From contig JAUCBJ010003590.1 in assembly GCA_032718475.1 (NCBI GenBank), forward strand, positions 26,230 to 90,229: a stretch of 64,000 nucleotides of DNA. Reading direction: 5' to 3'. The notes under the pieces were generated by a model. That model did not search any database. It was not told the DNA's origin and saw only the letters and a list, made by a program, of their open reading frames with translations. The position numbers were made by a program, and so were the translations under genes. The stretch is from Nemertoderma westbladi. Taxonomy: Eukaryota; Animalia; Xenacoelomorpha. The stretch's first letter is position 1. Each line of letters opens with the position of its first letter. Shown one piece after another: positions 2,017 to 28,908 of the stretch.

Positions 2017-3153
2017 TGTAAAGGCTTTTGCGTAATTAGCCGGTTATTTTCCCCGTAAAGTACTCTGTAGTTGGTTTAACCGGCATAAAAGGCCGTGTCC
2101 TTACTGTATTGTTGTTTTAGAGGACATAAAAGCCATTCCTTCCGTATGTGTACTTTAGCGGACATGATTAGCAATTCTATGACGCAATAAGCCGGATCCT
2201 CTTGAAACAGTGTAGATACCATGACGACGGCTAACAGCTGATATTGCCACGTAGAACATCTCTTTGTTCTTTGTTCTCTCTTTGTTCGGTCGACCAATCA
2301 GAGCGTTTTTTGCCTCTTTGTTGGAGATGGTGTATAGAAACTAGGGAAGTGAGTCAGTATGTGATTTTTCCACAGCCTACAACACCGGCGTGGAACCTCC
2401 GTGTTTCAGTCTTTAGTTCAACATTAGTAGGCTTAATTATAGAACGTATATCCGTTATCTATCCATAACTTAATCATTCATACCTTAACATTACTGCTTT
2501 TGCTGTCGGTTATTCATTATATTTGTTGATGGAACATTATATTCAGAATACTGATAAACAATCAGACACCCCAATCTTCTTGATATACTAAAGGTTAGAG
2601 AGACTGGATACATATAATGATTGCGACTTACATTGAGTGGTTTGAAGTGAATCTAATGCTATTTTATAGGCCCTACATGTATTGTCTGTTATTCTCTTTG
2701 TATGTGACTAAAATTAGTAAAGGTCGGCAGATTGGTGTACAGCATTGTGCAGCATTGTGTATGATTGTGATTGATAACGAAGCATCTCCTAAAGAATGCG
2801 CCATATACGTGAATCTATAGCCATCCCGTTGCGTCTGGTTTAAGTCATAACTCTGTTTATATATTTAGAGCGCCACGTCCTAAAGGAACTGTTAATATTT
2901 CCCGAAAGTGAATAATATTGTCAGAGATTATATATATTAAGATCAGTCGAATAATACAGTAGGTCTATCCCGCAATACGATTAGGCTTCCGAATCCAGTC
3001 TCCCTGGTATATCCAGCGGGTGAATGATCGCGCATAGACTGGTTTCGGCTAATGTAGTGTATCAAATATTTGTCGTAGGCTAAAGACGATCTATTATCTA
3101 GAAGACATCCCAATTTGGCAGGTTAAACTGCTAAAGGTCTGAAAGCGCGAACA
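2017..3153 (+). repeat. BEL-1 5' LTR (1137 bp)
   Basis: tgtaaaggc...gcgcgaaca. About a dozen substitutions and one 10-bp indel versus the 3' LTR (hand count, ~99%). CCAAT (2294), TATA-like tatagaaa (2333) and TCAGT initiator-like sites (2354, 2406). Confidence 0.95.
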
Positions 3154-3166
3154 ATAACGGATATAC
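3154..3166 (+). promoter_or_regulatory. Non-tRNA primer-binding site, complementary to LTR positions 2446-2458 (putative self-priming)
   Basis: ATAACGGATATAC directly follows the LTR-terminal CA, has no TGG, and is the exact reverse complement of GTATATCCGTTAT (2446-2458; also 13436-13448). Confidence 0.7.
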
Positions 3167-3511
3167 CGTCTAATTGCAGGGTAGGCAATAAATACAGTTT
3201 AATATTGTTCTGGTAAGAACAATAACGGATAAAGCTTCTGTATTGCAGTAGGCAATAAAGCTGAAGTTGGAAGTACCGGCCAACCGGTACCCAGTAGGCC
3301 TGACTACCTAACCACCCGGACCGGTACCTACAGCAGTACAGGTACGGCAGTATTATTCGATTTTGATTATTATATACCAGTAGGTCTTAATAATTAATCG
3401 GGGACGCCTGGTTTTTATTGGGATTTTACTTAGGCCTATTTCTGTCAGTTTTATTTATTTGTAGGCCAGTATTGAGCAGAAGGCGTGTAAGCCTGCTCAG
3501 ATTGTACAGAC

Positions 3512-4078
3512 AATTTGTAGGCTTGACTGTTGTCTAACTGTTGTTCAGTCTGAACGGATTGCAGTGTGTGTAGAGCATCTGTCCGATAAAGTGCTAGTTA
3601 GGAACGTAGGGGCTTCAAGTGCTGTGAGGTAAACCCCCTTTGAAAGAATAAGTCGTACTACTAGGTTAGAACGCATACTAACTAATCATTTCGGAGTCTG
3701 CATATACTGTAGTTTATTTAGGCTGGATATTAGTCTGCCATCGTTTGGTCTGTACTTTGTTTGTGTAGTCTGTACAGGTAGCGTATAATTCTTATTTAGA
3801 TAATTTGTAGGCTGGATAGTTGTCTGGCTGTTGTTAAGTCTGAGGAAATTTCGGTGTGTGTAGAGTGTATGTCCGATAAAGTGCCAGTTGGGAACGTAGG
3901 GGCTTCCAGTGCTGTGAGGTAAACCCCCTCTGAAAGAATAAGTCGTACTACTAGGTTAGAACGCATACTAACTAACCATTTCGGAGTCTGCATATACCGT
4001 GGTTTGTTTAGGCTTGATAGTAGTCTGTCAGTATTTGGTCTGCATTTTGTTTGAGTAGTCTGTACGCGTAGCGTAATA
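3512..4078 (+). repeat. ~290-bp tandem duplication in the BEL-1 5' leader
   Basis: aatttgtaggct...gtccgataaagtg...gaaagaataagtcgtactactaggttagaacgcatactaac starts at 3512 and again at 3802. Confidence 0.85.
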
Positions 4079-5029
4079 TTTATTATTCAGAGTTTATGCG
4101 ATTATTCGCAACATTCATATCCCCAAGTTTATTCCTACAGTAATTGTGCTTGTTATACATACCGTTATAGTTAAACTAACCCCGGTACTAGATCAGGGCT
4201 GCTTGGCGTAGGTAAAGACTGGAGATTTTGTGCTTTGGTCACTCCGGCAGATACCGTGGTTCTTTTAGCTGTTCAAGTATTTTAACTACTGATTATTTGT
4301 TGTACAAGTACTTGTACCTAATTTAGGGTTTAGTGTACAGTGCTTTCCGAAGGTAATTAGTGTAGGCAGTATATTTGTGTTGTAAAGTGGTTAATAGGCA
4401 CGTTGGTTCTGGTAGACCGCGGTAATTAACTTCTGGGTAGGAACACTCCGTGATACATAACGTAGTACTTATAGCGATACGGCTATAAGTCGTCAGACGG
4501 TGGTATTTTCCTATCTGGACAACGCAGTATATTTACTACTACTTATTATTTTCAAATACCGTAGTAACCTGTCCGTTGTAATAACCAGATATTCTAACCC
4601 TTTGTTAGGCTGGTTAGTAGACTTCTTGTAAAATTACCCTAAAAATTCGTACTTGTAATTTTTGTGTTTATTTAGAGATTGTAATCTCACCCCGAATTGT
4701 ACGTAATTTGTAGTAATAAGTAACTTAGGTAAATTAGAATTATTTGTTTTAGTGTCCAACAAGTAGCACTTCACTGAGAGCGCACAGCTTCGGTGTAGTG
4801 ACTCCCCCAGAAATAATAACATTTATTTCAAATATTGACAAAACCCATTTTAACGGGTATATATATTATAAATCAACTTAAAAACGATTTATAAAATAGT
4901 AGGCCTGCCATACAACAATTAGGTCTCAATATCAGTTGGACTACTGCTTAAATAACGGTAATAAAGTAAGTTAAAGTAACCAAGTAACCCTTAAAATTCA
5001 GAAATTCAATTATTCTAAAATAATTGACA

Positions 5030-5420
5030 TACCGGTATTTACAATAGGCTTATTATATTTATTTCTATAAATTTTCGGCTGAAATTATACCGGTATTCTG
5101 TAATTAATTCTAGTCTGTAATTATACTTATATATATACATTATAAGTGTAAGCTGTATACCGGTATTCACGATAGGCCTATTATATATATATAAATTTTG
5201 GCTGAAATTATACCGGTATTCTGTAATTAATTCTAGTTCATACTTATACTTATATATACTATAAGTGTAAGCTGCATACCGGTATTCACGATAGGCCTAT
5301 TATATATTTAGATATACTTGTGCTAAAATTACCTACCGGTATTCTGTGACAAACCTAGTCTGTAATAATACTTATATACTATAAGCATACCGGTATTCTA
5401 ATATATTGTATATATATCAC
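5030..5420 (+). repeat. ~120-bp AT-rich tandem repeats with an ataccggtattc core in the BEL-1 leader
   Basis: Repeated taccggtattc(tg/ac) and aaattttggctgaaattataccggtattctgtaattaattctag blocks. Confidence 0.75.
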
Positions 5421-5532
5421 GTTACCTAGAGTGAAGATATCGGTAATTAATTACTAGGCTAACGGTGATACTGAATTACTAGACTTGTTTAAACTGTAAT
5501 ATAGCGGTAGGCATTCAACTGTACAACCAAAC

Positions 5533-8500
5533 ATGTCTGACTCACAACAAACACTGTCAGATAGTCTCATAGAGGGTGTTAGAATGAGTATTAGACTTAG
5601 ACAGCGTCTTAAAAGGATCTGTGACCAAGATCAAAGTATAGAACATCCCAGACCAAAGTCTAAGTCCCCTCCTATTGTAAGAAAGGCCATCCCTACAGTA
5701 GTAGTATCAGACCCTAGGCTAATTCAAGACCATAGGTCTGTTATAGGCACTCGGATCCAAGTCAAGCGGGATCAAGAAGCAGCTGTCAAACAGCAGCAAC
5801 ATCCTAGCCAAGAACCTAGTTTTCAGCGGCCCGATAGCTCCAGTAGTTCGGATACTGTTGAGCGGACGCCCGAACGCGGAGCGAAGATGGCGGATACGGT
5901 TTATGATGAGCGGCCAACCTATGAAGAATCAACCGACGCCACTTTTTCTCAAGAAGAAAGCGAAGTGACAGCGGGGGGGCCGCAAAAGAGAGATGCTATT
6001 GATATTTATCTGTCAGACTATCAGCGATTCCTGGGAGACGAAGAGTTGAGGAGATGACTGTCTGGACTTCGCCCTAATAGTGAAGGAAACAAGCTTGTGT
6101 TGGACGCCATCGATGTGGATATGAGAGCTGCGAACCAAGCTAAATTTGATGAAAGCATCCGCCTCACTAAGGTTCAAGAAGAACAAGTAAAGAAAAAACG
6201 TATAGAAGACAGAAAGATAGCAGCAGCGGCAGTGGCAGAAGCAGAAAGAAAGGCAGCAGTGGCAGAGGCAGAAAGAAAAGCGGCCTTGGCAGCTACAGTG
6301 GCAGAGGCAGAAAGAAAAGCAGCCTTGGCAGCTACAGTGGCAGAAGCAGAAAGAAAAGCGGCTTTGGCAGCTGCAGTGGCAGAAGCAGAAAGAAAAGCGG
6401 CTATGGCAGCTGCAGTGGCAGAAGCAGAACGAAAGGCGTCTGAGGAGACTGCCCAACTAGAGTTGGAAAATCTTCAAGAGAGGCAAGACAACTTTAATAA
6501 ACAGTTAACAGCTAGTAATATGCAGATGATGAATCGATCTACTCCCAAAAGGCAAGGTTATACATCATCTGAGGAAGGCGATACCACAGATCATGAAGGC
6601 GGAGGAAATCGATCTCGCCTAAGCAGACGTAAAAGAATGTCCCACCGTCAGAAATTGCCTGATTTGCCCCCAGCTGTTCGAAGGCAACTAAATAACACAA
6701 ATTTAGGTAGTACAGAACCCACAGACCAAATAATTAAAATAGAAAGACTCCCTACTATAGTAGATGAGCCTGAAATAATTAGGCCTGTTCTTGAAATCAC
6801 CCCTTCGGTGATAGAGACACCTGTACTCCCGGAACCTACCTTTAAATTCCCTTTACACAGCACCAAATTATCTGTGCCTAGAGGAACAGCCCCTGAAACA
6901 GTGTCGGTCCTGGACTCCGAGCGAAATATAAAGGATATATCGCCCGTAGTCCCTCGTCTGCCCGCTACGACGTTGACGGATCCCGCTTCGGCGGTTGATT
7001 GGGTAGACGAGAGACGGCGGGGGATGGATATTCTCCTCGGAAAGATGGAGGAGAATCGAGTGCGTTCCTCCCAACAGGTCCGAGAGTTAGAAGGGACTGT
7101 TCAACAGTTAAAGGGAACTGTAAAGGAAAGTAGGTTAGAGTTGCAAGAAGTGCAGCAAAGTATCGCGCTAGAACGCGATAAATTAGTAAATTTACAAAAG
7201 GGTATACCACCACCCCCGGTAACAATGTGTCAACCTGTTAGGTCTGAAGTATCTCATGCGCAAGGTGTGGAGCCTACACGCATATATACTGCTAGCGAAG
7301 TAGAAACTCCTATAGTGAACCCTATTAAGGGTAATTATAGACCTGTTGATAATGATATTCCCTATAATCCGAGAAATTTATATACCGATAACTCGATATT
7401 GAATAACACGATGGCCCAAGAAAGTTTTACGCGTCAAATGGCTAGAACCGAAGCCCGGCAAGCGGTAAAGGTGGGAGAGATCGTCAAGTTCAATGGAGAT
7501 GAGATGAAATGGTTACCTTTTAATGAATATTACAAAGATAACATACAGAACTCTGTACTATCTAATGGAGAGAAACTTAGATTCCTCATCGAGTGCTTGG
7601 AAGGATCTCCCAAGTTAATGGCGTTAAAGTTTATTGGACATCCAGATGGATTAAGACAAGTTTGGGATACACTAAACATCAGGTATGGTAATAGGAATAA
7701 CATAGCTGGGTATTTGTATGCAAAGTTGGTAGCGCCCCGAAAGTTTATTAGCACCGGGATTATAGAGTTTTCCGATGAGATTCAGGAGATCTGTCGACAA
7801 TTAGATTGGCTAGGTAAGTCTCATGAGTATCAGAGTGCTATGGTTATTAGAGCAGTGGCTTCTACTTTACCGAAGGGTGGAGTAGGTACACGCTGGGACA
7901 AGAAAGTGTTATATATGATGGAACAACAACAACGAGACCCTACCATGGCTGATCTCATGTCATTCTTGGATGGCGAAGTGAAATTACAGCTCATAAAGCA
8001 GTCCAGAGAGAAGACATTGGAAAGTAAGGTAAGTGAGAAACCCGTTTCTAGGAGAAAGGTAACACCAGTGTGTTATACAGACGACGGCGAAAGCCAGACT
8101 TCTCAAGGAGAGGATAGCGGGAAGGACACTGAAAGATCTTATTATGTCAATAAAATGCCTAAAGAACAGGTAAGTAAATTCAAGTCTCGAACCAATGACA
8201 GGAGAGAACAGGTAAGAAAAACTCCTCCTACGTCTCATAAGAGAATTCAGGTGAGAAAGCCCGAAGAAAGAACGAGTGTGCACAATGTTATTCAAAATAA
8301 GGTAAGTAACATCAAACCAAAATGTGTGCTGTGTGACGGGCCCCACCGTTTGAATATGTGTGATAAATTCCTAAAGAAATCATTAAAGGATAGACGTGAA
8401 GTCATGTGGGATAAGCGGTTGTGTTATAATTGCCTCAGACGAGGACACCAACGGCGAACCTGTTACTCCGACGCAAGGTGTGCAAAGTGCGGCGCAAAAC

Positions 8501-9753
8501 ATCACATCTTGTTGCACACAGAATTCGAACGAAACAGCCCGAGTCAGGTAAGTGAGTCCGAACTACATGTCCAATTCAGTGATGTGAACGACACTGACCA
8601 ATATTCTGAGATGGAAGGATTCTATACGGACGAATTCTCCGACGAAAACGAATCCTGTTACCTGACAAATACCGCAGTGTATCGAGCACTTACGTATGAA
8701 AAGGACACCGACAGCGAGCTCCCCCTAACTACTTCTGACAGACAACCATCTTGGAAAGCACCAACTTCCAATGTAGGAATCCGAGAATTTCCTGTAGTAC
8801 AGTTAAGGGTCCACGGACCTACAAGGAGTTATATAGTGAACGCCCTCCTTGACTCCGGTAGCACAGGAACATTCATCGACAAAGAACTAGCCGAAGATAT
8901 CTTTGCTGGACAACCCAAGTTCCGAACTAAGCTAAACATGTCAGGAATTATGCAGGTTTGGAAATCTACCGTAATAGCGGATTATTATGTAGGCGCGTTG
9001 TCCACCCCCCAGGATGAACTAGGAGAACACAGCATAAGGTCAGTAAAAATGGTAGCGATAAAGAACTTCGCGACCAGCCAAGTGGAACCTTATAACTGGG
9101 ATGAGGACGATTTCACCCAGCAGTTTGAAATACCTAGATTCAACACCGATTACCCTGGAGTCCAAATACTCATCGGTCAAAATGCGCATGAAGCGCTCGA
9201 GACATTGGAGAAATGGCCTGCTCAACCGCAACCACTACAAGTCTATGCGGGAAGAACTAGAGTAGGTTGATACTTTACTGGCCCTTCTCGTAGAACTCTT
9301 ATGGAGAGATTACCAAAAGAACAGGTATATCAATTAAGTGAACGGGAAGTGGAGAGCAGTGAAGTTGACGACCCAACTGAGGGAACACCATACTCCTCAG
9401 ATAATGACGACATCGACTCCAATGTAGATCAATGGAGACATTGCCCCGAGACGATCAATCTAGCCGACATCGCTTCCAGGGGAGCAACTCCTCAAGAACT
9501 GGTAGATACTCCAGACCGGTTAGGTGGACCCGACTTCCTAAGTAAAGAAGATGAATGGCCTCCTCATCTTACCCCGGTGAAGATTAGACAGGCCAAGGGA
9601 GCGGAGAAAGTAACACAACCACTCAATCACCCAGCTGGTCGTTTATGTTTACTGGAAAGAGACCAAAAACTGTCCGGAAACTATGGAAGGCAAGATACTC
9701 TTCCCACGACCACCTCCCTAATCCAACAAATATCTAGGGACTCCATAACGTAA
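5533..9753 (+). pseudogene. BEL-1 gag-protease polyprotein fused in frame to RNase H and integrase tails; two in-frame TGA stops
   Basis: ORFs 5533-6057, 6097-9270 and 9301-9753 share one frame. BEL gag core (FNGDEMKW..F, KLRFL..CL.G), knuckles CVLCDGPH..NMC, CYNCLRRGH...TC and CAKCGAKHH.LLH, protease ALLDSGS, TRVG*YFTGP (= T.LGW..GP), RNase H end WRHCP..NLADIASRG...GPDFL...WP, integrase end HPAGRLCLLE. No RT motifs. Confidence 0.88.
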
Positions 9754-10303
9754 CAACATACGGAGTGGGTGTGTGACTATATTATTTTATATTTATTTTT
9801 ATTCTTTTATATTTATGTATGTATTATTATGTAATTTTATTATAATCGTTTTATTTAATTTTATTTAGTAGCATGTTATTTTAGCGATTATTTAGTAGAT
9901 TAGTGCAATATATTTGCGTTTATTACGTAATTACTTATATTATATATTTAGTGCGACGGCGAGAAACAATTCTTTTTCTCTTTCCTTGCTGCCCGTATTA
10001 CATTACGAATACGTAACTACAGTAAGATGAAATGTCCGTACTTATTAAAGTACAATAAAGCCACTACTATATTCAAGTATTATTGGTAGGCAGAGTATTA
10101 GGAATGCAAAGTTCAGATCCTCGTGTCTCGGCTAAACCAAGCTCTGGGTAGACCTTGGAAACGACTTGCCTCTTCAAACTGACATTGCTTCGTGCGATAT
10201 TGCTTTCATACCGTATATTAAATAATACATATAGTAGCGTGATGTCCTTTTAACAGTAGCGTATAACGCAAAATAAATCTGTTAAACCCTTTGACCATCT
10301 GTA

Positions 10304-10568
10304 ATTCTAGTCTATTAAGATATCGCGGCACCCACCGATATACTTGAAAGACAAAATTCTAGAATCAGTGGTTAACGTCCCCAGACAAGTTCTGGAATAA
10401 ACTGGTGCCCATCCTAAATATTAATTATTAATATTTACAAAATCTGTCAAATTTTAGATCCTTTAAAATTCTAGTCGATTAAGGTATCGTAGCACTTACC
10501 GATACTCTTAAAAAGACAAAATTCCTAGAATCTAGGATCCCAGTCCCCAGACACGTTCTGGAATAAAG
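10304..10568 (+). repeat. ~164-bp tandem duplication in the BEL-1 3' non-coding region
   Basis: attctagtc.attaag.tatcg..gcac..accgata...aagacaaaatt...ccccagaca.gttctggaataaa at ~10304 and ~10468. Confidence 0.75.
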
Positions 10569-11399
10569 TTACGTCTATTTAACATTAAATAATAAAATTT
10601 ACGGGAATAAATTTAAATTCATATATTTCAATGAATTTAATAAATTGTTATTTTTATACAATTTATAACATTCCCAAAATTCCATTAATTAATAGATCAC
10701 GGGAGCGGAGATTCACTCTATTAAGCGTATTTGTGTGTGAGAATCTCCAATATATAGTCAATAGCCGATAAAATTCATAAAATCATATATAGAGAGGATA
10801 TTGACAATTAACGAATTACTATTAAATAGCATCCCAGATCTGTATGCATGAGAATTACCCTAATTCTACCGCTAGCTTTTCATAATGTCACCATGGCAAC
10901 AACCACGCTAGAATTAGAAGTGAGTTAAAAGAACAATAGAAAGCTTGCCCCATTGAATAGCATAGTGAATAAATAGCGCACTGCTAGTATCCAAGGATAC
11001 ATAATAACAACGTGACATTCTGGAAGGCACTGACTAACGGACAAATGACCCGAATGTGTGATAGAATGTGTACCATTTGTGACAGTTACGTGGAATTTGT
11101 GCGTTTGTAGGTGAATGTTACTACTAAGGTGCGTTTACAGTAGCGAGTCGCAATTGTGAAAGTAACCCTAACTCTCCAGTAAGAACCTGAAGTACATCTA
11201 AGCCTTTGGGACGGACAGTGGAGTGACTTGTGCCGGTTATCGTTGTCGTTGTGTAGCTACATCATTGGCGAAAGCACAGCGACGACGGTACATCGGCGCT
11301 GAGGATCTTGCACTGTCCGGGGGCAGAGAGGGGTAGGCAGCGACGCCCGCTCACCTAAATATAAACTCATTATAATATGGATAAACTTATATAGCAGAT

Positions 11400-12928
11400 A
11401 TGATTGAGTTGATAGAAGATGATCTTGGTATCAGGGAGCGATATACTCTACCTTTGCAAGCGTTTGTTGATAGCTTGATACGTAGCGACGCTGGTCCAAC
11501 TACTACGGAGGACGATGGTCGTTATATCTAACCGCCAATGTCCTGGGAACAACTTGCGCGTGGGTTGGACTGTAGAAAATTCACCGCTCGCTATACGCAT
11601 CGTAATGGTACGTATATGGACTTCTTAACTACTGGTCATCCTATCGACCTACACGATACGAACGATATAGACACCAAAAGGGAAATGGTTTATTTAAATA
11701 TCATACCCAGCGGAAGCGGAAGGATAAACTGAGACTCGAACACGAAAACTCTATTCGAAACCGACTCGAAAGTGCAGATGTCGAAGAGCCGGATAAACGC
11801 AGCGACTTCACCAAATACCTGGAATTCTTGAGAGAAACCTATCTCGATATTACCAGTCAACAGAATCTAGAAACTCGATATCCTCAAGGTATACATCATG
11901 ACCGCATGGTAGAACTCAAACGGCTCTATTCCACTATGATGTATCTTACCGCCGATCGACCGCTACCTGTTGTACCGGATAGCTTCGAACGAATGGAGGA
12001 ATATTGTAAGCTGGAGAAAGATCACTCGCGTTTCCCCTACAAGACGTGCGTTTTTGGTATTATTGCGATGAATGTCCAAGACCCAACCAACAAACGGAAT
12101 GACATAAACATCCGCGGAGACGTTGCTTTAAACACGGTTTTACTCGCTATATTTACGGGAGTTTCGAGCGAAACTTGTTCGATGTATCACCTACGCTCGT
12201 TCGACTCAGACGATCTTTAAATAAACCAATGATCAGAGTTTCAGAATACTCGATCAGATCTCCTCATTCCCTAGTGTGTAGTGAGACCTCAGACTCTTGA
12301 TCCTATTGGTATGACGGATCCTCCCGAGCTGTACTCACTACTCAAAGATCTAGTGTTACCTGAACAATTAGTCGGTGGCACCCCGGTTGTGGGCTTCCTA
12401 GATATTAGCCCATACTACCTAGCCGGATTGGGACGCGGACATTTAATATCGCCGTTTAACCCTTACCATCGTCCCGGCTTAACACGATATAACCTGTCAC
12501 CAAAGTGGCGGAGAGCGTTGTACCAAATGAGTTAGACGCCATTCTACAAAGATCAGAAAAGGAACTTACGCTTGTTCAGATAAACGTAAATTGCACTAGC
12601 AAGTCCAAGCGGTAAACAAAGTAACTTTATCTAAGTTCGATCGGGAAATCCAGAATCTCTAAGAAGTTATCGAACTTGGACGATCCTATTCTCTGCGAGA
12701 GTTTTTGGATGAACGTATCCAGCTACGAGCGGAGGAAAATCAGCTCGAGGAGAAGCATATCGAAACGGCGGATACCTCGACCATAATCCTACACCTTCTG
12801 ATGCAAGCATATTGCACCCTTCACCCAGGAGTTATGGCCCTCCTAGTAAAGTGGCTCCCCCCAAAGAGAAAAGGACTCTTGCTAGCCTCAAAAAACTGCG
12901 TAAACGCCGTCCTCGTAAGAAAGACTAA
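11400..12928 (+). pseudogene. Decayed orphan accessory ORF (~500 codons) between pol remnant and 3' LTR of BEL-1
   Basis: Coding-like segments 11400-11732, 11720-12535 and 12600-12928 linked by frameshifts and several stops; ends ...KKLRKRRPRKKD*. No domain recognised. Confidence 0.55.
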
Positions 12929-13006
12929 CTGTTTAGAGTATCTTTATATTTTAGAAACTGTGATTTGTTATATTTTATAGACTTAAATCCCATTTTCTGG
13001 GAGCGG

Positions 13007-14133
13007 TGTAAAGGCTTTTGCGTAATTAGCCGGTTATTTTCCCCGTAAAGTACTCTGTAGTTGGTTTAACCGGCATAAAAGGCCGTGTCCTTACTGTATT
13101 GTTGTTTTAGAGGACATAAAAGCCATTTCTTCTGTATGTGTACTTTAGCGGACATGATTAGCAATTCTATGACGCAATAAGCCGGATCCTCTTGAAACAG
13201 TGTAGATACCATGACGACGGCTAACAGCTGATATTGCCACGTAGAACATCTCTTTGTTCTTTGTTCTCTCTTTGTTCGGTCGACCAATCAGAGCGTTTTT
13301 TGCCTCTGTGTTGGAGATGGTGTATAGAAACTAGGGAAGTGAGTCAGTATGTGATTTTTCCACAGCCTACAACACCGGCGTGGAACCTCCGTGTTTCAGT
13401 CTTTAGTTCAACATTAGTAGGCTTAATTATAGAACGTATATCCGTTATCTATCCATAACTTAATCATTCATACCTTAACATTACTGCTTTTGCTGTCGGT
13501 TATTCATTATATTTGTTGATGGAACATTATATTCGGAATACTGATAAACAATCAGACACCCCAATCTTCTTGATATACTAAAGGTTAGAGAGACCGGATA
13601 CATATAACGATTGCGACTTACATTGAGTGGTTTGAAGTGAATCTAATGCTATTTTATAGGCTGTACATGTATTGTCTGTTATTCTCTTTGTATGTGACTA
13701 AAATTAGTAAAGGTCGGCAGATTGGTGTGCAGCATTGTGTATTATTGTGATTGATAACGAAGCATCTCCTAAAGAATGCGCCATATACGTGAATCTATAG
13801 CCATCCCGTTGCGTCTGGTTTAAGTCATAACTCTGTTTATATATTTAGAGCGCCACGTCCTAAAGGAACTGTTAATATTTCCCGAAAGTGAATAATATTG
13901 TCAGAGATTATATATATTAAGATCAGTCGAATAATACAGTAGGTCTATCCCGCAATACGATTAGGCTTCCGAATCCAGTCTCCCGGGTATATCCAGCGGG
14001 TGAATGATCGCGCATAGACTGGTTTCGGCTAATGTAGTGTATCAAATATTTGTCGTAGGCTAAAGACGAACTATTATCTAGAAGACTTCCCAATTTGGCA
14101 GGTTAAACTGCTAAAGGTCTGAAAGCGCGAACA
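13007..14133 (+). repeat. BEL-1 3' LTR (1127 bp)
   Basis: Direct repeat of 2017-3153, followed by TSD GCAAT. Confidence 0.95.
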
Positions 14134-14928
14134 GCAATCTCAAAGATCTGGAATACTATTGAAAACTTCACTCACTCAAAATATCTAAAACGAAAGAAGG
14201 GCCCTAAGATTATTCATCACAGTTGTTACATTAACTGCAATTAAGTAAATAAAGAGGCAACTAATTTCATTTAAATTTCTAAACATTTTATTTAAGATAA
14301 ATATTAAGTATTGAGAGCACCGTTAAGTTTAAATAATGTAACAAAATTACGTACTGTACATCATTGTACAGTATGAAGGAAACTATTCCCCGATAAGACC
14401 CGGTTGTTTATTTATACAGTACAAACCTCCCTCGCTACGCTCGCTCATTACATAAATACACTCAGTTCATAACGTTGAAATGTGCTACAATGATAGACTG
14501 TAAATAAATACTGATGTATTCCATATCACTGTGGGAAACTAATAAGGTAATTGTAGGGCACAGAAACGATGGCGTTTTTCGCAATTTTCGCAAAAAACGT
14601 AAATGAAACCTCGCATTCTTCTTATAGGCCACCTGTAGTTACTGTAATTTATAGTTCGCATTCTATGTATTTATGCATTAATGCATACAGTAGGCCTACG
14701 TACAGTAGAATAGGCCTACTGCGGGGCGGGCAAGTCGCCTTGGGGCGGGTATATACAACATAGTATTATACCCGTGGTACTGTAGGACTATTTACTAGAT
14801 ACTGCGTAAGTATTGTATGCATTAATTACTACCTTAGCACAACGGTAGACTGATTGACCCCCCCCCCCCCCCCCCCCCCTCTCTATTGTCTTATTATTCC
14901 TAATGGTAGGTCTTTCTTTCCGTACCAG

Positions 14929-15763: not shown

Positions 15764-16122
15764 TGTGCGAAATCCAGGCTGGTTCTGTAAAACTGTTTTT
15801 CATTGTTTTAAAATCTTTCTTACTTAATAATAACATATATAATAAACTGATTAGCATTTAGGTAAATATGATAATTATAGTTCAGTACATAATAATTAAC
15901 GGTATAAGGCACCAGATCACGGTACCGGTAAGTATAACACAGACAGACACAGTCTGTGTATGAAAATGACTGAAAAGCAGAACAAGGAAACGACACGTCC
16001 TTCTGTAGTTGGTTAGTAAGAATATAATCAAGCAGTCAGCCATATGTATAGTAAAAATATGTGGTACTAAAAAATTACTTCAATCCTAAATACAGTATAA
16101 TTATTATCTGTAATTTAGGACA
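15764..16122 (-). repeat. BEL-2 3' LTR (359 bp)
   Basis: tgtgcgaaatcc...ttaggaca, direct repeat of 28548-28908. Confidence 0.95.
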
Positions 16123-16302
16123 TACTCCCGCCACCGAACAAATAAACGCTTCTAGCTAAATAATTAGGCTCTATAAAAATTAATATTTTCAAATTATATA
16201 TATATATATAGCCTTCGTCAAAATAACATGCAAAACAAAATGAACCATATAATGTAACAAAATAATATTTGGTTATAAAATATTTCTCAACGGGATAAGT
16301 AA

Positions 16303-19300
16303 TCATATACTACTTTCACTCTCGGACTCAGATTCATTGCATATCGTAGTGATTCGTTGTTGGGCTTCAGTAGCCGCCTGGCGTTGTGGACGCTCTGATC
16401 TTACTGGGGGCTCTGGTTGAACGAGAGTGCCGGTAGTTGTTTGATTAAGGGGGCCGAGTTCAATATTGTCCGTTTCTAGAGGATACAACTTCCGTACAGG
16501 GCGTACTAGTGTTCCTAACTGTGTACGTAGGACGACAGATCGTACCCATCCATCCTTACCGGGGTGTAAGGTGATCACACGACCAAGGGACCATTTAGAA
16601 TGTGGTAAATGCGGATTATGTATTTGTACGATGTCATTTAAACGAATTTGTGTGGTTGGAAATGGGTTGTTCCATCGATGGTACTCGCGCAATGCAGTGA
16701 GATATTTGTGGGACCAGCGATTTTGAAACGCTTGCAATAAGTTTTGTATGTACAATTGACGGCGATTCAGTGTCGAATGTGGTACAAGGTCTGGATCATC
16801 GAGATCATCTCGCTCGATAATTCGATTTGGCAATGTGGTAATACGATGTCCAACCATTAATGTCGAGGGTGTAATGGGATTGAGGTCATCAATGTTAGAA
16901 GACACGTAGGTCAGTGGCCGGTCATTTAAAATAGCTTCAATTTCAATAACGACAGTCTGGAGCTCCTCCAATGAAATCAAGGCACGTCCCAATATCTTTT
17001 TCAAAATATCCTTTACCATTTTGATTAGTCTTTCCCAGAAGCCTCCATACCAAGGACTAGCTGGTGGGATCGTCTTCCAAATAGTCCTCTGATTAAGTAG
17101 GTAATCACGTACACCTGGATCATCCTGTATAGCTTTCATAATATCATTTGCAGCAGTGAAGTTAGTTGCATTATCGCTTAGTATCAAAGAAGGAGTAGAA
17201 CGTCGCCCAATAAGACGTCGAAATGCAAAAAGGAAAGATTCTGCACTGGCATCTTTTGCTATTTCCAGATGTACAGCGCGTGAAGTCGCACAAGTAAACA
17301 AGACAATATAAACTTTAACTTGTTCATTACAATCTATTACAATGAGTCTACCAGTATAGTCTACACCAGTAGTTTCAAATGGTCTTGTTTTATTAACTCT
17401 AAAGATAGGTAATGGAGGTGGAGGAGGTGTTGAGTATGGGAGACCTCTGAGACGTTTGCAAGTAATACATTTATGACAGATGGATTTAACGATTTGTCGA
17501 ATTCTAGGGATCCACCAATTCTGTCTAAGGTAAGTGACAGTGTCGCCAATACCAGAATGACAAATACGTTCATGGGCGTATGAAATCAGTAGTCGGGTAA
17601 ATCGGTAGTCGGTCAGGATAAAGTAGGATAGGTTGCTGAGTATTCCATGGTAGATCGGAATATTGTATTCTTCCAGCACATCGGATAATACCATCTACTA
17701 GAATCAAACGTAACTGTTTTATTATAGCAGGAGAGCGGGACTTGCTCTTATCATTCAAAAGACAACGATATACATCAGGATAACAAGTTTGTTGTATGTA
17801 TTTAATTAAATACAACTCGGCAGTTTTAATATCATTGGAATTTATAGTATCTCTGACATTATCATTTACTATTTGACTATGTTCATTAATGGACTTGCGC
17901 AAATTTATTCTATATTTGAGTTTGCGAATAAATATAAATACATATGCTGTCACTCGAAGTAGTTTATCATAATTGCTGAATTTGGAAATGTTTATCAGTT
18001 GCTCTGGAACAGATAATATGGATTCAACTGTTGAACACAATGTATTTATTTGTGGTTGATTAATATAATTGTAGTTAACATGAGATTGTTTAGGCCAATC
18101 AGATGACGTTAGCCAATTGGGACCATGTCGCCATAAATCGGATTTCAGAAGTATCTTCGCTTTTATTCCCCTGGATAACATATCTGAGGGATTGTCATTG
18201 GTTGAAACGTATTGAAAGTCTGCATTTGGTAGAATGCTATGTATCTCTTCAACTCGATGACGAACATAAGGATTAATAATGCCTTTAGATTTGACCCAAA
18301 GTAATGCGATTTGGCTGTCAGACCACACCCACAGACGACAATTTGGTAGTTGATGAGATAGTGTATCAGCAACATAACGAATGAGCCGAGCACCAACTGT
18401 TAATGAGGTCAACTCCAGTTGAGGAAGTGATAATTTAGTCTTCTTCTTCTTTTGAGGAGATTCTGATGTTAGAGGTAGTAAGGGTGCGACTCGTCCCTTA
18501 GCCATCACTAACTCGGATTGTTCAGATTGAACTGCATAAACGACTGCACCATAAGCTTTAATGGAAGCATCGCAAAACACATGTAATTTGGAACTGAGTC
18601 CTAAAGGTAGTCGTCGAGGTACTTCGAATGAAACTACAAGATTGAAGTCATTAATAATGGATTCCCATTCCTTCATAAATACATCAGGAATGGGTTCCTT
18701 CCATGACAATCCACGTTGCCACAACTGTTGGAGGAACATATGTGATCGGATGGTTACTGGAAATAACCAGCCATTAGGATCATATAACTTAGAAGTCAAG
18801 CACAAAACAACATGTTTTGTAACAATATCTGGAGAAACAATGTCTACGGTGGGAAATCCAATAACATCAGTATTTGTATCCCATAATAACCCAAATAAGG
18901 ATATAGTAGTATTTGTGACTTTGGGACCATTGTTATCTTTGTCAATAATTTGTTGTAATTTAGGTAAATTAGTGTGACCCATTGTTTTAATGGGAATCCA
19001 CCAGCAATGAGAACGTCGCAGCATTTGCGATAATAAGATATCAAACTGTCTTCGCTTTCATCAGTAGCCTGAAGGTTATCTACATAGATATTGTCAATAA
19101 TACGTTTGGCTAAAGTGATTTCATCATTTGATTTTATTAGAGTAGATTTCACATGGTGTCGTATTGTTGCGTTGAGTAGAAATTGAGAGCATGTAGCCAC
19201 AAACAACACTACGCGGAATCTGTAAATATCCCATGGGCTAGACTCATCTTCTGGATTACTGGGCCAAAAGAATCGAGTAACATTACGATCGACTTCTTCA

Positions 19301-21489
19301 ACTCCAATCTGGAGGAATGCTTTCTCTATATCAGCTACTGACGCCCATTTATTACAGCGAATTTTCATTAATAATGATACCAGCATTTGACTCAATGATG
19401 GACCAGTATATAGGCAGTCATTAAGACTCGGTTTATGTGGTCCTGAGCGTGCAGAACAATCAAAGACAACTCTTAGTGGGGTTGTAGAAGATGTTGGCTT
19501 CATGACCCCATGATGAGCAAGGTAATGTACTTGTTGAACATTATTTGATAAATTGATAGAATCTAGTGGTACCTTCTCAATAAATCCACGTTCTAGTTGA
19601 TTCATAATCACATTATGAAAACAACGTAGGAGTTCAGGTGTTTTCCTGAGTTTGGACAATGTACCATATAAGCGCTTGCGAGCTAACTGGATATTTGTAG
19701 GCAGAACTGGGGCATCAGGTCGCCATGGGAACTTTACTACATAATTACCATTTTCGAATCGTATAGATTGCTCAAAGTTAAGAATAGTTGATTCATGCAA
19801 TAGATCTGGGTCTTCGTAATTTATGCCAATTGCATCTAGACTCCAAATTCGATCGAAGGCAATCTCTACATTCATTTCGGGGTTGGTATGCTCTTCAGGT
19901 CCAATGTCTGAAGTTGAGGTAAAACTACATAGTGCACTTAAAGCACTTTTTATAGATTCACTGGTGGGTAGACAACCAGCTATAATATCCCCTAAGTTCG
20001 AAGGTATACAATATAAACCATCATATATTTTTTTGCATAAATAAACGAGAAAAAATAATCTACACCGATCAGCAGACCTAGATCTGGAATATCATCTCCT
20101 CCTCGTGGATCAGCCAAGGAGAAACCTTGGAGCTTAAGGGTTTCAATAAGTTAGTCCCTACCAGTGGTATGTAGACGATGTGGAAGTGTGTCCACTACAA
20201 GTGCATTAACCAGGACTGGACCGTCAGATGTAGCGACACTGAATGCCATCAATAGACATCAGAATGCGCCAAGAGGTGCATAAATTAAATGCATTCGTCG
20301 CAATATAAATGAACATTGTGAACCAGGGTCTAGTAATGCCCTTACTTCATGAGTACCAGGAGGACCATCTCTTGTTGAAGTTCCAACTATGATTGGTGCA
20401 ATAGCCGAGAAAAGTAAAGCAAAGTAGGTAGGACTATATTACTACCACCTTGTTTAAAAGGAGCTGTATCATTGGCAGCAGTAACCAATGAACCTGCAGT
20501 ACTTGACCCAGTACTGGAAGGATGGTGAAAAGTTGAATTTACCTGAGATTTATGATCTGCACTAGAACGACTAAGTAAATTTGAACTATAAGTATGTGGT
20601 GCTGACGACTCAGCAGCATGTAGTTGCTCAATCTCCTCCCTAAGTGCAACACGTAAGTCGTCTAATGACCAATGTGTTGATTTCGCAGCACGATTAATGT
20701 TGCTGCGAATTTTAGCCGGAAGTTTGCGTACAGTAAGTTCTGCATAAACGTAACCAGCATCATCAATGTTATAACCCAATGCATAGGTTTAGGTGATGAC
20801 AGGTCAAATATTGTATTTAAACGTGCACGAAGTATAACTTCCTTTCTACCATAAGTATTCTTTAACAACATTACAGCTTCGTTATAGTCTTCATTTGTGC
20901 GTTGAAAGTTATCAACTAAGCGCGCAGCTTCACCAGTTAGTTGTCCTTCCAGATATGTGAATTTTGTAGCACCTGCAATATCTTGGTGTTTATCTACAGC
21001 ATCAACAAATCTGTCCCAAAAATTGGGCCAGTCTATGGGGTTGCCAGAAAATGTTGGCAACTTTATACTCGGTAGCTTTTGCTGTCTAACTCGACCAATT
21101 TGATTATCATTAAGCATAGATGAATCATGATTGGATGATCTGCCATTACTTACTTCGCATTTGGTAGGACTTGGATTAAGGAATGTATCAACTATACGGA
21201 GTGCTGATGACATTCGACGGTCATCTCGACAATTTTTGTCGATTTCTGATACTACCTCAGTCTCAGTGGGGACTAGGCTTAAAATGTGTTCATTTAAATC
21301 TAGAATCTTAGATTGTTGGTCTCGCAATGATGTAGTAACATTGATAATGTGATCTACATCAGGGTTTTCGATAGCTATTTTTGCATCAGCATCAACAAAC
21401 AATAAAGGATATAGCTCATCTAACAACTTAGTCACCATGGCACGGTGACCACCGCATTTGCTCTTTAGTTTGGCTAAAGTTTCAGCCAT
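16303..21489 (-). pseudogene. BEL-2 gag-pol, several frameshifts
   Basis: gag LPTFSGNPIDWPNFWDRF (21489-20387); protease RALLDPGSQCSFI (~20340); RT RVVFDCSA, LNDCLYTGP, ADIEKAFLQI, YVDN (19875-18960); RNase H LHVFCDAS, WSDSQIAL, NPSDMLSRG; integrase HHCC plus GVDYTG, SDNATNF, GGFWERL and RPVRKLYPLE. Confidence 0.92.
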
Positions 21490-22195
21490 TGAGATTTAGT
21501 TTAGGCTATATCACAGAATAATAATCAGATAATGGCTCAGTAAATTGCGTTGTGTTTATAAATTAAAATATTATTTATATTATACTGGTATTGCGTACCG
21601 GTATTCAATATTCATTATTCCAGTAGGCCTATCAGTCGGGCACTTTTTTTTTTTTTTTTTTTTTTTTCTTCTTATAAAAAAGCCCTCTTGCCGATTAATT
21701 ACATATTTATGTTTATTGCACCACGGACACAGATAAATGTTAAATGAAACAAAAGCACACTTTGTTATCCACTGTACGTGATACACATCACACACACCAA
21801 ACGCACCACACGCACAAAAGCACCACACTCACAAACGCACCCAAACCAAAAAAATGAGATTAGGGCATCAAAAGTAAACCAGCCCTGACCGTTGCTAGTA
21901 CCATTAATCAGATCGAAATTTATTGTTAAATTCAGAAGTTATGAACGAGTAGTGTGTAAAATAAGTAAAAATTAAGATTAAAAGATATGTGTTGCAATCC
22001 GCAAGATATAAAAGTTTAAAGGGGCAAATATTTGGAAGAATAAGTAAACCACTAACAAAAATTAAAAAAGTCTAAATTCTAGAATTGTTTTGCACTTTAT
22101 TATACATATTTTGTTCTGTTCCACTATGTTATTACTGTAATTTAAAACCTGAAAGAGAAAACCAGTGGTATGTTGAGACGGACGTACAGACTACC

Positions 22196-25100
22196 CTAAT
22201 AGCCGAGACTGTTAAATCGACCTGTATTGAATACGAATATTGTAATTACATCGATAAGGGCGACCGCCTTGTCGCGCAGCGCTGTCGTGGAGACTGGGTG
22301 ACTGTCAGGTCCGTGTGGTGGGCCAAATAAGATAGTGGTAAGTGTTGGTCTTAGTCCTAAAGCCGAAATAGCTGCATGCAACATAATATGGTGAGAATGA
22401 AATAGTGGGCATTCCATAAAGTAGTGGAAAGTGTCCTCCCGTTGATGGCCACAGGAACATGATTTGACGGTTTGGACATGATTGGAGTAAAGGTCAGAGT
22501 TCAGAGATGAGCAATTACATCTCAGTCTGGCAAGTAAGCCGTTTATAGTTGGAGACCCAAGGGAGTAATAGGGAGGGATTGGATGCAGAGAACAAATTAT
22601 AGGCAATACACTTTGCTTAAAAGTTGTGATAGAGTCTGCGGACTGCTTATCTGTAGGAAGACTGTTCCAGAGACAAACGACGGAAGGCAAGAATGAGTCT
22701 CTGTAAAAGTTTCTGCATGCCATTGGCGGACGAACGTTACCAGAGTTACGGGTGTCATAGACGCTGGCAGACCTTACAACAGGGGGAAGCATGTCTAGTA
22801 AGTGCTGTGGGGCGTGGCCAGACATCATTTTATAGAAAATACACAATTTCTGATAGTCCCGTCTTTGTTGAAGTGGACATAGACCAGACTCCTTGTACAA
22901 CTTGTTTGTGGGGCAAGATATTGTTAATCGACACACGATTCGAATTGATTCCTTATTTAGGAGTTCCAACTCAGTTTTGAGTTCCTGAGAACAGTTGTCC
23001 CAAACGGCACCGGCGTATTCCAGGTTTGAACGAACAAAAGATTTGTAAATGTTCATTAATGCATCTCTACCAACTTTGTACTTAACAATTCTTAACATGT
23101 TTAACTTCTTGTTGGCAGCGACGAGCATTTTTGCAACCTGTGAATGCCATTTTAAGGAGGATGAGAAGATGAGGCCGAGATGCCTATGCTCTGAGACTTC
23201 TGGGATAGGAATACCATTGAGAAATAAGGGGAGGTGATTTGGGTCGCGCGATCTGCGGTGAGAAAAAAGCATACACTCAGATTTAGCAAGGTTAAATTTG
23301 ACCAACCATCTTGCTCCCCAATTGGAAATTGAGTTGAGATCCGCATTAAGTGCGGATGCGGCAAGGATACAATTCGACCTAGAGTTGACTTCTATGTAAA
23401 GAGCTGTGTCGTCAGCATAGAGACTAATATTACCAGTGACTACGTCTACTATGTCATTGATAAAAATCAAAAACAGTAATGGGCCCAACACAGAACCTTG
23501 TGGAACTCCAGCCAAGACCTTAACCCATGATGACTGTTGACCATTCACTACGACGCATTGAAAATTATCTTTTAAATAGTTATGAAGCCATTCAAGAAGC
23601 TTTCCTCCAATACCCATGTTTTCGATTTTATATAGAAGACTTTTGTGGTGGACTTTATCAAATGCTTTGCTAATATCCAGGAAAACTATGCATACCTCTT
23701 TTCCTTTGTCTAAGGCATTAACAAGGGCGTTGTAGAGAGAAATCAATTGGTAGATGGTCCCATCACCACTTTTAAAGCCAGACTGAAATTTTGAAATGTA
23801 ATTTTTGACATGAGCAAAGATTATTCTGTGGATGTAATGTTCAAACAGCTTGCCGAGGTTACTAGTAAGGGCCACAGGACGGAAGTTGTTGCAAATATCG
23901 TTTGGAATATTTTTTAGGAGTGGCAAAACATAACGCAATTTCCAGTTCTTCGGGTGAACCACACTATCAAATATGAACTGGAACAGTTTAGAAAGGTGAT
24001 TTATGATTACAGGCATCCCATCCCGGCTTTAATCATTTTATTGGAAATCCCCTCAGCCGCACAGGTAGCACTGTCAGGGTCTAAAGTTTTTATGTCACAC
24101 AGAATTTCGGGCGTATGAAAGACAATCTCAGTTAACAAAGGTTCTGGAAAAGCAGTATGAGGCATAATGAAGTTTGATTCATCCAATGAATACTGGTCAA
24201 TGAAAAAGGAGTTGAAGAGGTCTGCTTCCTCTTTTGGAGTGACAGCAACAACATTATTATAAGATATTGAGGGAATCTCCTGTTCTGGTACTTTCCCCAG
24301 CAGTTGTTTACAGATCAACCACCATTGTTTACTGGAAAATCTGGTTGAAATGAGTTTGTCCGACAGGTTTGAGAAATACTCCTTTTTTGCTTTACGGCAT
24401 TCAAGAATGTACTTGTTTCTGGCTAGGCGGAAACTGGTCCAGGAGTTGTCATTGTTAGTAGATTTTGCTGTCCTGTGAACTCTGTCCTTTATACGAGAGA
24501 GGCGCCTTAACTTAGTGGTGTACCATGGCTTGTCGTTTGGGCGTACAGTAATAATTTTGTTCGGAATGGAAGAACTCGCACAGAGCATAAATTTGTCAGT
24601 CCATGCAGAAACAACTTTGTTAACTTCTGTATGCTCTAAGTAGACACTATCCCAGTCTGTTTCACTCAACTGATGCCTGAATTTTGAAAAATCCGCCTCC
24701 TTGTACAGCCAAATGCGCCTGGTGTACGATGGGATGTTTCGAATGGGAAATTTATATGAGAAAGAGATAATGATCACTTGTGCTGTAAGGGCTAGATACA
24801 ACTATATTGGAAATTGAATCGGGAAGATTTGAAATAACAGATGACGGCGAAGTGCTGGTCAATTGTGTTATACGTGTTGGCTCCCTAATATGTTGGAATA
24901 AACATTGGCGTGAAATAAAGGAAGTTATTTCACGACATTTTGATCAGTTTAAAAGGTCCTGGTTGAAGTCGCCCAAAATAAGTATTTCATTGAAACCTAA
25001 ACTTTTTATTTCTGAAACCATCGAATTTGCTGCTTCCCAAAAAGAACTAGTAGTGGTGTTGGGGCGATAGAATAGACCTATGGCGAGTTTTCTAGAACTA

Positions 25101-25597
25101 AGGGTACAGGAGCACCACAATGATTCGAATAGGGGATCTATATCCTCTATGTTAGAGAGTCTCTTAACAGTAAACATATTGGAAATGTATAAAGCTAGGC
25201 CACCACCGTGCGAAGGGCGGTCACGGCGCTGAGGTTCGTGAAACTTTGAAATAAGGAATTTCTTGGAAATATGTGCTGGTGAAAACCATGTCTCGACAAA
25301 TGCAAGAACTTCAAATTTTGAGGATAAATTTTCTGGCAAAAAATCCCAATTGCAGGATAATGACTGAATGTTCGTCAGCATAACTCGGAGAGATGGGAGA
25401 TTTGGGCCGGGGTTAGGGTGAATGTCCCCAGATATGTACAAAATAAAGATTAAACAAGCAATAAACCATACGAGAGCTAAGCCTGTAAACATCCACGAGG
25501 TAAGAGTGTCTAAAAAGTGCTCACTTTTTAAGTATCCGGAGATAGCCCCATGAAAAGTCCCCACGCTTGCTCGCCACTGCTCAATAGAGATATTCAT
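22196..25597 (-). pseudogene. LINE ORF2: 2A-like leader, APE endonuclease, reverse transcriptase, C-terminal CxC..H..C; frameshifted
   Basis: MNISIEQWR...SGDIHPNPGP; NIQSL, VETW, GGGLALY, YRP, LGDFN (EN); FLDISKAFDKV, GVPQGSVLGPLLF, YADD (RT); RLRCNCSSLN...CSCG...HYFMEC. Confidence 0.9.
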
Positions 25598-26274
25598 TTA
25601 AATAGGAGGAAACGAAATTGAATGAGGTAGCAAGCGTGCGAGAGGGGGTGTCTTGTAGGATTGCAACACGCAATTCACACTGATTGTCCCAAAGAGAAAA
25701 TTATGTTTGTCAATAAGAAAGATGACACAGCGACAGGCAGGTGCTGATTGGTTTGGGAATGTTCCAACACACGAGTGACATTCATACAAATACCCCAGTA
25801 CACGTACAGCACACACACACAGCACACACAACAGACACACAAAATATGAGAATGGGATGGAATGAGATATGAGTGGAATGGGGTAAACCCAAGAAGCGGA
25901 AACAATGAGATGACATTGTTTTTATTGTAATTTGTATTCCCATCACCGTAAAATGTATTAATAATATAACATATAGCAATATGGGGTAATGAAGGCCTAA
26001 CAACTGACAAAGAAGACATCGGCACGTAATAAAACAATACAGTTTTGCTGGTTATCAATCACCGTAAAAAAATGTTTAAGTTGATTACCAACCGGAACCC
26101 AGTAATATAAGGTGTTTATTGAAGTACTAAACCTATACTGTATACTTAAAAGTAAACAGCAAAAATGGAAATACCGAAGTAAATGCCGGTACTAAAAAAA
26201 TATGTTCACTGAGTTCGCACATCCAAAGGAACTACTTGCTTTTAAAAGTAAAAAAAAGAAAAGAAAAAAATTTG

Positions 26275-26695
26275 TTTAAACCGAACGGCTTTACTGCTCA
26301 CTTACTTGAAATTATAAAAAAACATGCTAATAAACAAAAGTAACTATTACTGTTCTTGAAATGCTGAGAAAAAAAAAATGTAATTTAAATCAAACGGCTT
26401 TGTTGCTCATTTACTTGATATGAAAAAAAAATGCTAATAAACAAATGTAACTATTACTGTTCTTGAAATGCTAGAAAAAAACAACCGGAATATATTTAAA
26501 TCAAACCGCTTTACTCCTCACTTACTGAAATTATAGAAAAATATGCTAATAAACAAAAGTAACTATTACTGTTCATGAAATGCTTGGGGAAAAAAAATAT
26601 TTAATTTAAATCAAACGGCTTTGTTGCTCATTTACTTGATATAAAAAAAAAAAATGCTAATAAACAAAAGTAACTATTATTGTTCGTGAAATGCC
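26275..26695. repeat. Four ~110-bp tandem units in the LINE ORF1-ORF2 spacer
   Basis: tttaaa..aac.gcttt...ctca.ttact...atgctaataaacaaaagtaactatta.tgttc.tgaaatgc at ~26275, 26384, 26495 and 26605. Confidence 0.85.
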
Positions 26696-26812
26696 ATTGC
26701 CATGCATTTTACATGCACTAGTCAGAACCTGTCGTCGAGATTAATAAATTGGTTTGGGCTGTAAAAAGCGCAACCGCAATTTGATGCGTTAGCTTGGTAG
26801 AAGATCTTACAA

Positions 26813-27853: not shown

Positions 27854-28547
27854 ACCGCTATTATTGTGAAAAGTAAGAATCAGAACCCAACCAGATGGGC
27901 AAATTAAGCAATATTAATATACAAAGTGCAATAATGCCGGATCGGTAGTTGATACAGTTGTAAACTACATCTCAGTGTGTACCGGTAGGTAGGCTAAATT
28001 GAAAGTCTGAAATAGGTGATGCTCTACAAAACTACTGACCGTGACCTGTCATCATCATCATTTCTGGGTATCAGGGTATGTATATTATAGTTAGTGATGG
28101 TGATAAATTCAAAATCTTCAGAATTTGATACTGGTGTAGCAGCATTATAGTTCAGTTCACTGCCTGACTGCCAGACTGCAGTTTATGCAGCCGGTAATGA
28201 GCGGCAAGAAGAAATACCAGTAATGCCAGAATGTAGTACAGTTTCAACAATAAGTACCGACTTTGATTCCATCAGTTTGGTCTTATACCAGCATTCAGCA
28301 TATGGATGGTAAATAAATAGACAGATGACAGATAGGGTTACCATCCGACAGTCCGATGTCCGGTATTCAGTATTACTGTATTCAGTATTACCACGCGCAC
28401 ACTGGCTGACTGGTTATATTTACGCAAAACGGTAGACGGTACGATAATGGTAGGCTGTTGGTCAGTTAGTACCGGTATGCCCAGTCTTCAGCTTTCTGGC
28501 TTTACAGGTACACCAACATTACAGCAGTACAGTGGTCCAGGCACCAA

Positions 28548-28908
28548 TGTGCGAAATCCAGGCTGGTTCTGTAAAACTGTTTTTCATTGTTTTAAAATCT
28601 TTCTTACTTAATAATAACATATATAATAAACTGATTAGCATTTAGGTAAATATGATAATTATAGTTCAGTACATAATAATTAACGGTATAAGGCACCAGA
28701 TCACGGTACCGGTAAGTATAACACAGACAGACACAGTCTGTGTATGAAAATGACTGAAAGGCAGAACAAGGAAACAACACGTCCTTCTGTAGTTGGTTAG
28801 TAAGAATATAATCAAGCGCAGTCAGCCATATGTATAGTAAAAATATGTGGTACTAAAAAATTACTTCAATCCTAAATACAGTATAATTATTATCTGTAAT
28901 TTAGGACA
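28548..28908 (-). repeat. BEL-2 5' LTR (361 bp)
   Basis: Direct repeat of 15764-16122, followed by TSD GCTCT. Confidence 0.95.

Follow-up and report, generated by a model that had tools for sequence, protein, structure and literature searches.

A BEL/Pao retrotransposon of Nemertoderma westbladi that probably primes reverse transcription with a segment of its own LTR

A primer-binding site complementary to the element's own LTR

We describe a BEL/Pao retrotransposon from the genome of Nemertoderma westbladi, which likely primes its reverse transcription with a 13-nt segment of its own long terminal repeat (LTR). The element occupies positions 2017-14133 of a 64,000-nucleotide stretch of the host genome, hereafter the window. 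Self-priming was proposed in an earlier, sequence-only reading of this DNA, and it is now supported, as a likely interpretation, by several observations: a sharp edge of conservation at the predicted primer end in the host's copies of the family; one pair of compensating variants in the two paired segments; and matches between primer-binding sites (PBSs) and predicted LTR splice junctions in related elements. The signal is real and non-random, and it probably serves self-priming: a new version of an established mechanism, in a superfamily whose definition includes priming by tRNA.

Anatomy and classification of the element

The element is a non-autonomous BEL/Pao derivative on the forward strand. 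It is delimited by a 5′ LTR of 1137 nt (2017-3153) and a 3′ LTR of 1127 nt (13007-14133), both of the form TG...CA, and flanked by the identical target-site duplication (TSD) GCAAT at 2012-2016 and 14134-14138. The LTRs differ by 12 substitutions and one 10-nt indel; given this near-identity and the intact TSDs, the insertion is young. A purine-rich tract directly before the 3′ LTR (12999-13006) is the likely plus-strand primer. The gag-protease frame (5500-9270, with an in-frame stop at 6055-6057 and the end stop at 9268-9270) encodes a DUF1759 domain in Gag (approximately 7489-7872; Pfam E 9e-11), and its translation further shows three Cys-His knuckles in Gag (approximately 8323-8517) and the DSG motif of the protease (8851-8859). 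The triple knuckle and DSG protease are hallmarks of BEL/Pao in the available text of PMC554778; together with the DUF1759 Gag and the TG...CA LTRs with a short TSD, they place the element in this superfamily. Downstream, blastp and tblastn recover a remnant of about 48 aa from the C-terminal region of RNase H (9418-9561).

In a profile built from 22 full-length BEL polyproteins, the element matches only positions 18-632 and 1176-1237; by blastp, tblastn and profile, the reverse transcriptase (RT), most of the RNase H and the integrase are missing. Two features of BEL/Pao are absent: RT, RNase H and integrase arranged as in Gypsy; and the PBS for a host tRNA 3′ end specified by the ICTV, there being no TGG at 3154. 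Lacking RT and integrase, the element cannot copy itself and needs the RT/RNase H of a helper. The protein searches recovered no close relatives, with the best matches showing 25-49% identity, mostly over the zinc knuckles, and no autonomous partner was found among these protein matches. In host runs X1-X3, the summed contig depth is thousands of times higher on the LTR than on the flank; it does not measure copy number but points to a large family.

The window holds a second BEL/Pao element on the minus strand (15764-28908; LTRs at 28548-28908 and 15764-16122), which is distant from the first; its pol carries a frameshift, and a further RT frame of its own (22199-24028) belongs to a nested region. 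We considered it as a helper partner and rejected it (phmmer E 2.7; tRNA-type PBS).

Several further features of the element and the window were seen in passing. The leader (3154-5511) is unusually long at 2.4 kb, and contains a tandem duplication of 290 nt (3508-3790 and 3798-4080, 87% identity) and more internal repeats near 5004-5315. In-frame tandem repeats of 39 nt at 6218-6451 in the N-terminal region of gag encode an Ala/Glu/Lys-rich, probably helical stretch. From the pol remnant to the 3′ LTR, 3.2 kb (9754-13006) carry unassigned frames, of which the longest, of 204 aa (11606-12220), is without a Pfam match. Elsewhere in the window are a MITE-like pair of 161-nt inverted repeats (486-646 and 1053-1213, 84% complementary), a perfect tandem duplication of 1427 nt at 40716-43231 and an array of a 23-nt tandem satellite running from about 60450 to past 62000.

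The primer-binding site and its complement in the LTR

The 13 nt that immediately follow the 5′ LTR (3154-3166) lack TGG and are the exact reverse complement of 2446-2458 within the LTR, as well as of the corresponding segment of the 3′ LTR (13436-13448); the match begins at the first base after the terminal CA, i.e., at offset 0. The lack of TGG, the match within the 5′ LTR and its starting point bear out what the sequence-only reading had claimed. We accordingly treat 3154-3166 as a primer-binding site that is not of the tRNA type and 2446-2458 as a putative self-primer, the 3′ end of a predicted capped 5′ fragment. The earlier estimate of the chance of such a match was about 2e-5 with AT bias uncorrected, and correction for composition gives an expectation of 4.7e-5; when the LTR was dinucleotide-shuffled 20,000 times, a match of at least 13 nt at any of four offsets arose once. 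An empirical scan found that 217 of 62,700 window positions have such a 13-mer in the preceding 1137 nt, these falling into 24 runs, mostly at inverted repeats and G/C runs. Since similar 13-mers thus occur elsewhere in the window, the match counts only because it lies at the one site fixed in advance. Under the published rule for self-priming, the 5′ LTR should contain a complement, ≥10 bp long, of a site that lies within 0-5 nt after the LTR (available text of PMC6317226); the element has 13 bp at offset 0.

The unit formed by the LTR end and the PBS recurs 68 nt further on as a diverged second copy (3217-3284), in which 3222-3231 match the primer over 10 nt; folding puts part of this copy into a hairpin (3203-3224). 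The family contigs include copies with a single such unit, seen as joints. Within 2017-3300, AATAAA occurs only at 3187-3192 and 3254-3259, directly behind each PBS unit and outside the LTR.

The 189 tRNA 3′ 12-mers listed in the supplement of PMC13524379 all end in CCA; therefore, none of this set can pair at 3154. The one tRNA gene of the window, a tRNA-Asn called by ARAGORN on the minus strand at 45144-45215 and possibly a tRNA-derived repeat, matches the PBS by 5 nt only, and an Rfam search of the element was negative at E ≤1. The window's other BEL element does have a tRNA-type PBS: TGGTGCC stands 1 nt after its LTR.

Predicted promoter and RNA fold

The CCAAT, TATA-like and initiator-like motifs reported upstream of the primer segment are present: a motif scan places CCAAT at 2294, a TATA-like box at 2333 and an initiator-like TCAGT at 2354, constituting a predicted promoter (2294-2358). 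The motifs suggest a start near 2356; with the alternative initiator-like motifs at 2406 and 2413 also considered, all motif-based candidate starts precede the primer end, at a distance of 45-105 nt. When folding begins at any of six candidate starts and stops at 3200 or 3300, the primer-PBS helix reaches a probability of 0.75-1.0 in its core, falling to 0 once the fold extends to 3600. In the fold of 2356-3260, this pairing is the longest helix with a pair probability >0.5; the fold stability of the whole region is not unusual (z -1.56). Folding further predicts a U5 stem joining 3028-3039 to 3137-3150 and stopping 3 nt short of the PBS. Conservation of the long U5 stem is, however, unsupported, as common family variants break it.

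Variation of the family in the host

Family variation was read from contigs of four host runs (X1, X2, X3 and X5, from three studies) aligned to 2395-2515. The sole substitution listed in 2404-2459 is C2453T, accounting for 87-95% of the depth in X1-X3 and 42% in X5, and it preserves the pairing with the PBS as a G.U pair. Directly behind the primer, the picture changes: in X1 the contig depth falls about 100-fold, from 121,347 (2455-2459) through 13,069 (2460-2464) to 1,264 (2465-2469), and it drops likewise in X2, X3 and X5. Contig depth is a crude measure, and it is also low at 2332-2385, such that a fall of this kind is not unique to the primer edge. That second low-depth stretch surrounds the predicted start, where other copies have a shorter spacer between TATA box and initiator. 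The loose ends of the contigs behind 2459/2460 differ from one another and are mostly A/C-rich, with small insertions concentrated at 2462-2482. We thus delineate a hypervariable, G-free tract behind the primer (2459-2495); in the window's copy it belongs to a G-free run of 41 nt (2455-2495), the longest in the LTR, with the next reaching 16.

Conservation hence stops one base behind the last paired nucleotide (2458). A near-invariant primer segment followed by scrambled sequence from 2460 onward is as expected at a site of cutting and strand-jumping. Template ends are error-prone through untemplated additions. We infer that 2459-2495 would be the site of the cut and of the first strand transfer, and it is possibly also a very short R region.

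The earlier reading had called for covariation between the PBS and the LTR segment, and one matching pair of variants was found, on unlinked contigs. A single-copy contig of X2 carries the PBS variant G3159A + A3161T, plus A3154G; loose ends in X2 and X3 carry the LTR variant C2453T + T2451A. As 2453 pairs with 3159 and 2451 with 3161, the PBS and LTR variants would together restore Watson-Crick pairs, and A3154G gives a G.U pair. These compensating variants are suggestive only, for they lie on separate contigs and the change in one of the two pairs is a CpG transition, which might have happened independently on both sides. Three variants of the leader diverge straight after 3163-3165, i.e., at the edge of the helix.

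Matches to predicted splice junctions in related BEL elements

Of the 68 loci that a BEL alignment retrieved from metagenome contigs, 37 entered a uniform analysis; the other 31, with little or no sequence before gag, were left aside. BEL loci were not recovered from viral contigs, where 43 pattern hits were chance matches of ≤27 nt. We defined a junction match as a site 0-5 nt behind the leader's CA or TA that pairs with a GT-AG junction of the same locus. Such matches of 11-16 nt to their own junction are found in 17 of the 37 loci versus 40 of 1,328 cross-locus pairs. The hits of L054 (its top hit) and L067 look like chance, and L101/L102 constitute one family, which therefore leaves 14 credible families: L044, L046, L049, L051, L053 (with a 13-nt match), L063, L074, L078, L079, L080, L081, L084, L092 and L101/L102. 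Additional junction matches of 10 nt occur in L054 and L072. The junction-type loci have a non-tRNA PBS and draw 4-7 nt of the pairing from the second exon of the predicted LTR junction. When any GT-purine donor was allowed in these metagenome loci, all 12 of the 12 top hits of at least 10 nt fell on strong donors, six of them GTAAGT. Where both copies fix the LTR end, the match measures 15 nt in L051, 12 in L092 and 11 in L101, as compared to 13 in the window element and a cross-locus maximum of 9 nt in 56 comparisons with fixed LTR ends.

The autonomous BEL locus L045 is of a different type: it has a contiguous 11-nt LTR complement (753-763 and 915-925) without a junction match, and this is kept between two LTRs that are only 74% identical; in the null for contiguous matches, 8 of 380 reach at least 11 nt. 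None of the seven tRNA-type loci attains 11 nt, a weak control in that three are without a testable junction and one has two. A splice-built primer was also tried for the window element itself and rejected, its match being contiguous and its best junction reaching 12 nt with a weak donor at 2454. Judged from these sequences, many members of one large BEL clade pair the PBS with their own LTR, for the most part through a match to a predicted splice junction, and across the relatives each site follows its own LTR.

In a quick maximum-likelihood tree of 39 rows, a 23-row clade (SH-aLRT 100) unites 17 self-pairing loci and contains no tRNA-type locus; L045, of the same contiguous type as the window element, lies within it. 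The window element is a long branch with 38% of columns filled: the free tree places it outside the 23-row clade, constraining it into the self-pairing clade is not rejected (p-AU 0.085), and group profiles do not discriminate its placement. Two changes of primer type suffice on the tree without the window element and three with it. Away from the main self-pairing clade, the junction-type locus L078 groups with the tRNA-type loci L057/L059, which suggests that primer use switched a second time.

A proposed mechanism and its rivals

We advance the following mechanism for the element. Transcription would start near 2356, about 100 nt upstream of the primer end, and the RNA would fold back, annealing 2446-2458 to the PBS at 3154-3166. 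The RNase H of a helper element would then probably cut directly behind 2458, and the free 3′ end of the resulting capped fragment would be extended into U5. The minus-strand strong-stop DNA would stop at the cut and transfer from there to the same point of the 3′ LTR, which would account for the scrambled sequence that the copies show directly behind the primer. In the junction-type relatives, the primer would lie 5′ of the cut and go uncopied, and the intron could persist via the unspliced 3′ LTR. Copying of the spliced 3′ end would instead give the contiguous type, and the contiguous form in the window element may be an intron-loss derivative of this kind.

Without a fold-back cut, the LTR segment might prime in trans or from a 3′ end, as a short LTR transcript or a dimer-partner RNA ending at 2458: priming in cis and in trans look the same in sequence, primer and PBS lie 700 nt apart with a long U5 stem that is unconserved, and the LTR contains no AATAAA. 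However, a primer supplied by the 3′ end of the RNA would leave the 5′ template uncut, with 2459 onward copied normally and the hypervariable tract unexplained, and the 4-7 nt of downstream exon needed for pairing in the relatives suit cleavage better than termination; we regard this version as unlikely. Nearly the same low probability, a shade lower if anything, attaches to the idea that the pairing is a conserved RNA switch, serving packaging, dimerisation, translation or the sensing of splicing, and that priming actually falls to a small RNA of the host, for example a fragment from within a tRNA, at or near this site. Half-tRNA primers are indeed known in Copia lineages (available text of PMC6317226). 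Yet the site varies between families in step with each family's own LTR, a pattern incompatible with a fixed host RNA; it sits in the slot where other BEL loci carry TGG; and neither the Rfam search of the element nor the 5-nt match of the window's tRNA gene yields such a primer.

The proposal that the 13-nt match is a functionless accident, due to chance or to a template-switch inversion in a single ancestor, draws on the AT-rich sequence, the 24 runs of such 13-mers in the window and the stops in gag-pro of this copy. It is nevertheless very improbable against the fixed position of the match with its one occurrence in 20,000 shuffles, the end of conservation at the paired segment and the recurrence of the arrangement, in different letters, in 14 credible families. 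Priming by the element's own LTR segment, released by a cut behind 2458, is the likely explanation. More tentatively, as a history whose probability we put a little below even, a large and old animal branch of BEL/Pao may have dropped tRNA priming and built its primer by splicing of an LTR intron and a cut a few nt into the second exon; the window element would be an intron-free descendant with a growing, G-free cut-and-jump scar, from which the cleavage site can be read in the genome.

Relation to known self-priming systems

The nearest parallels are Tf1/Tf2 of Schizosaccharomyces pombe, Tj1 and the Tf1/sushi and Tcn1 chromoviruses, which, like the window element, lack a tRNA PBS and have a site adjoining the LTR that is complementary to their own LTR RNA, with a predicted U5 stem beside it. 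The Tf1/sushi group belongs to the Ty3/Gypsy chromoviruses, whereas the proteins of the window element are of BEL/Pao type. Self-priming is shown by experiment for Tf1 and proposed for Tj1 (available text of PMC4600332), and for the window element it is predicted from sequence. The sequence-only reading had called the element Tf1-like, and this holds for the principle but probably not for the primer itself: that of Tf1 is the first 11 nt of the RNA, with RNase H cutting between nucleotides 11 and 12 (available text of PMC7175516), whereas for the window element the prediction puts the primer end some 100 nt from the cap, and the primer of the relatives spans the predicted junction. The same reading named self-priming as established for Tf1 and proposed for related Ty3/Gypsy chromoviruses, and the trait has been predicted beyond them as well: in the available text of PMC6317226 it is proposed for Tcn1 and, by the same sequence rule, for the plant Ty1/copia TAR lineage (Houba, Osr-1), outside Ty3/Gypsy. 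TAR is a plant Copia lineage, and that text describes no intron-built primer for it. In the fungal GalEa Copia elements with a Conserved Hairpin Site, the PBS is replaced by a self-complementary sequence; unlike in the window element, the hairpin is local, and no LTR complement is reported in the available text (PMC5445492).

Within BEL/Pao, the ICTV profile describes the family (Belpaoviridae) as having an 18-nt tRNA PBS and host-tRNA priming (PMC8742986), and Achilles has a tRNA-Tyr site (available text of PMC4580426). BEL/Pao elements with tRNA primers, among them Achilles and the window's second BEL copy, have in common with the element described here the DUF1759 Gag, three Cys-His knuckles, DSG protease, TG...CA LTRs and 5-nt TSD; unlike them, the latter has no tRNA PBS and is without RT and integrase. 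The available text of two BEL/Pao surveys (PMC554778 and PMC3118150) contains no occurrence of PBS, tRNA or priming. Self-priming or a splice-built primer in BEL/Pao was not found in the literature searched, a search beyond whose reach lie most subscription papers and the Repbase reports. A further departure from host-tRNA priming concerns Cer7 of C. elegans, which has been proposed to encode its own tRNA-like primer.

Implications

If our interpretation is true, self-primed reverse transcription reaches a third superfamily of LTR retrotransposons, against the current definition of the family, and does so in a new form, in which the primer is internal and often made by splicing. Annotation tools that rely on tRNAs would score such elements as lacking a PBS. 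The predictions are precise to the nucleotide for both the cut site and the junctions. The elements themselves would be independent of tRNA primers and, by extension, would be without the site targeted by 3′ tRNA fragments.
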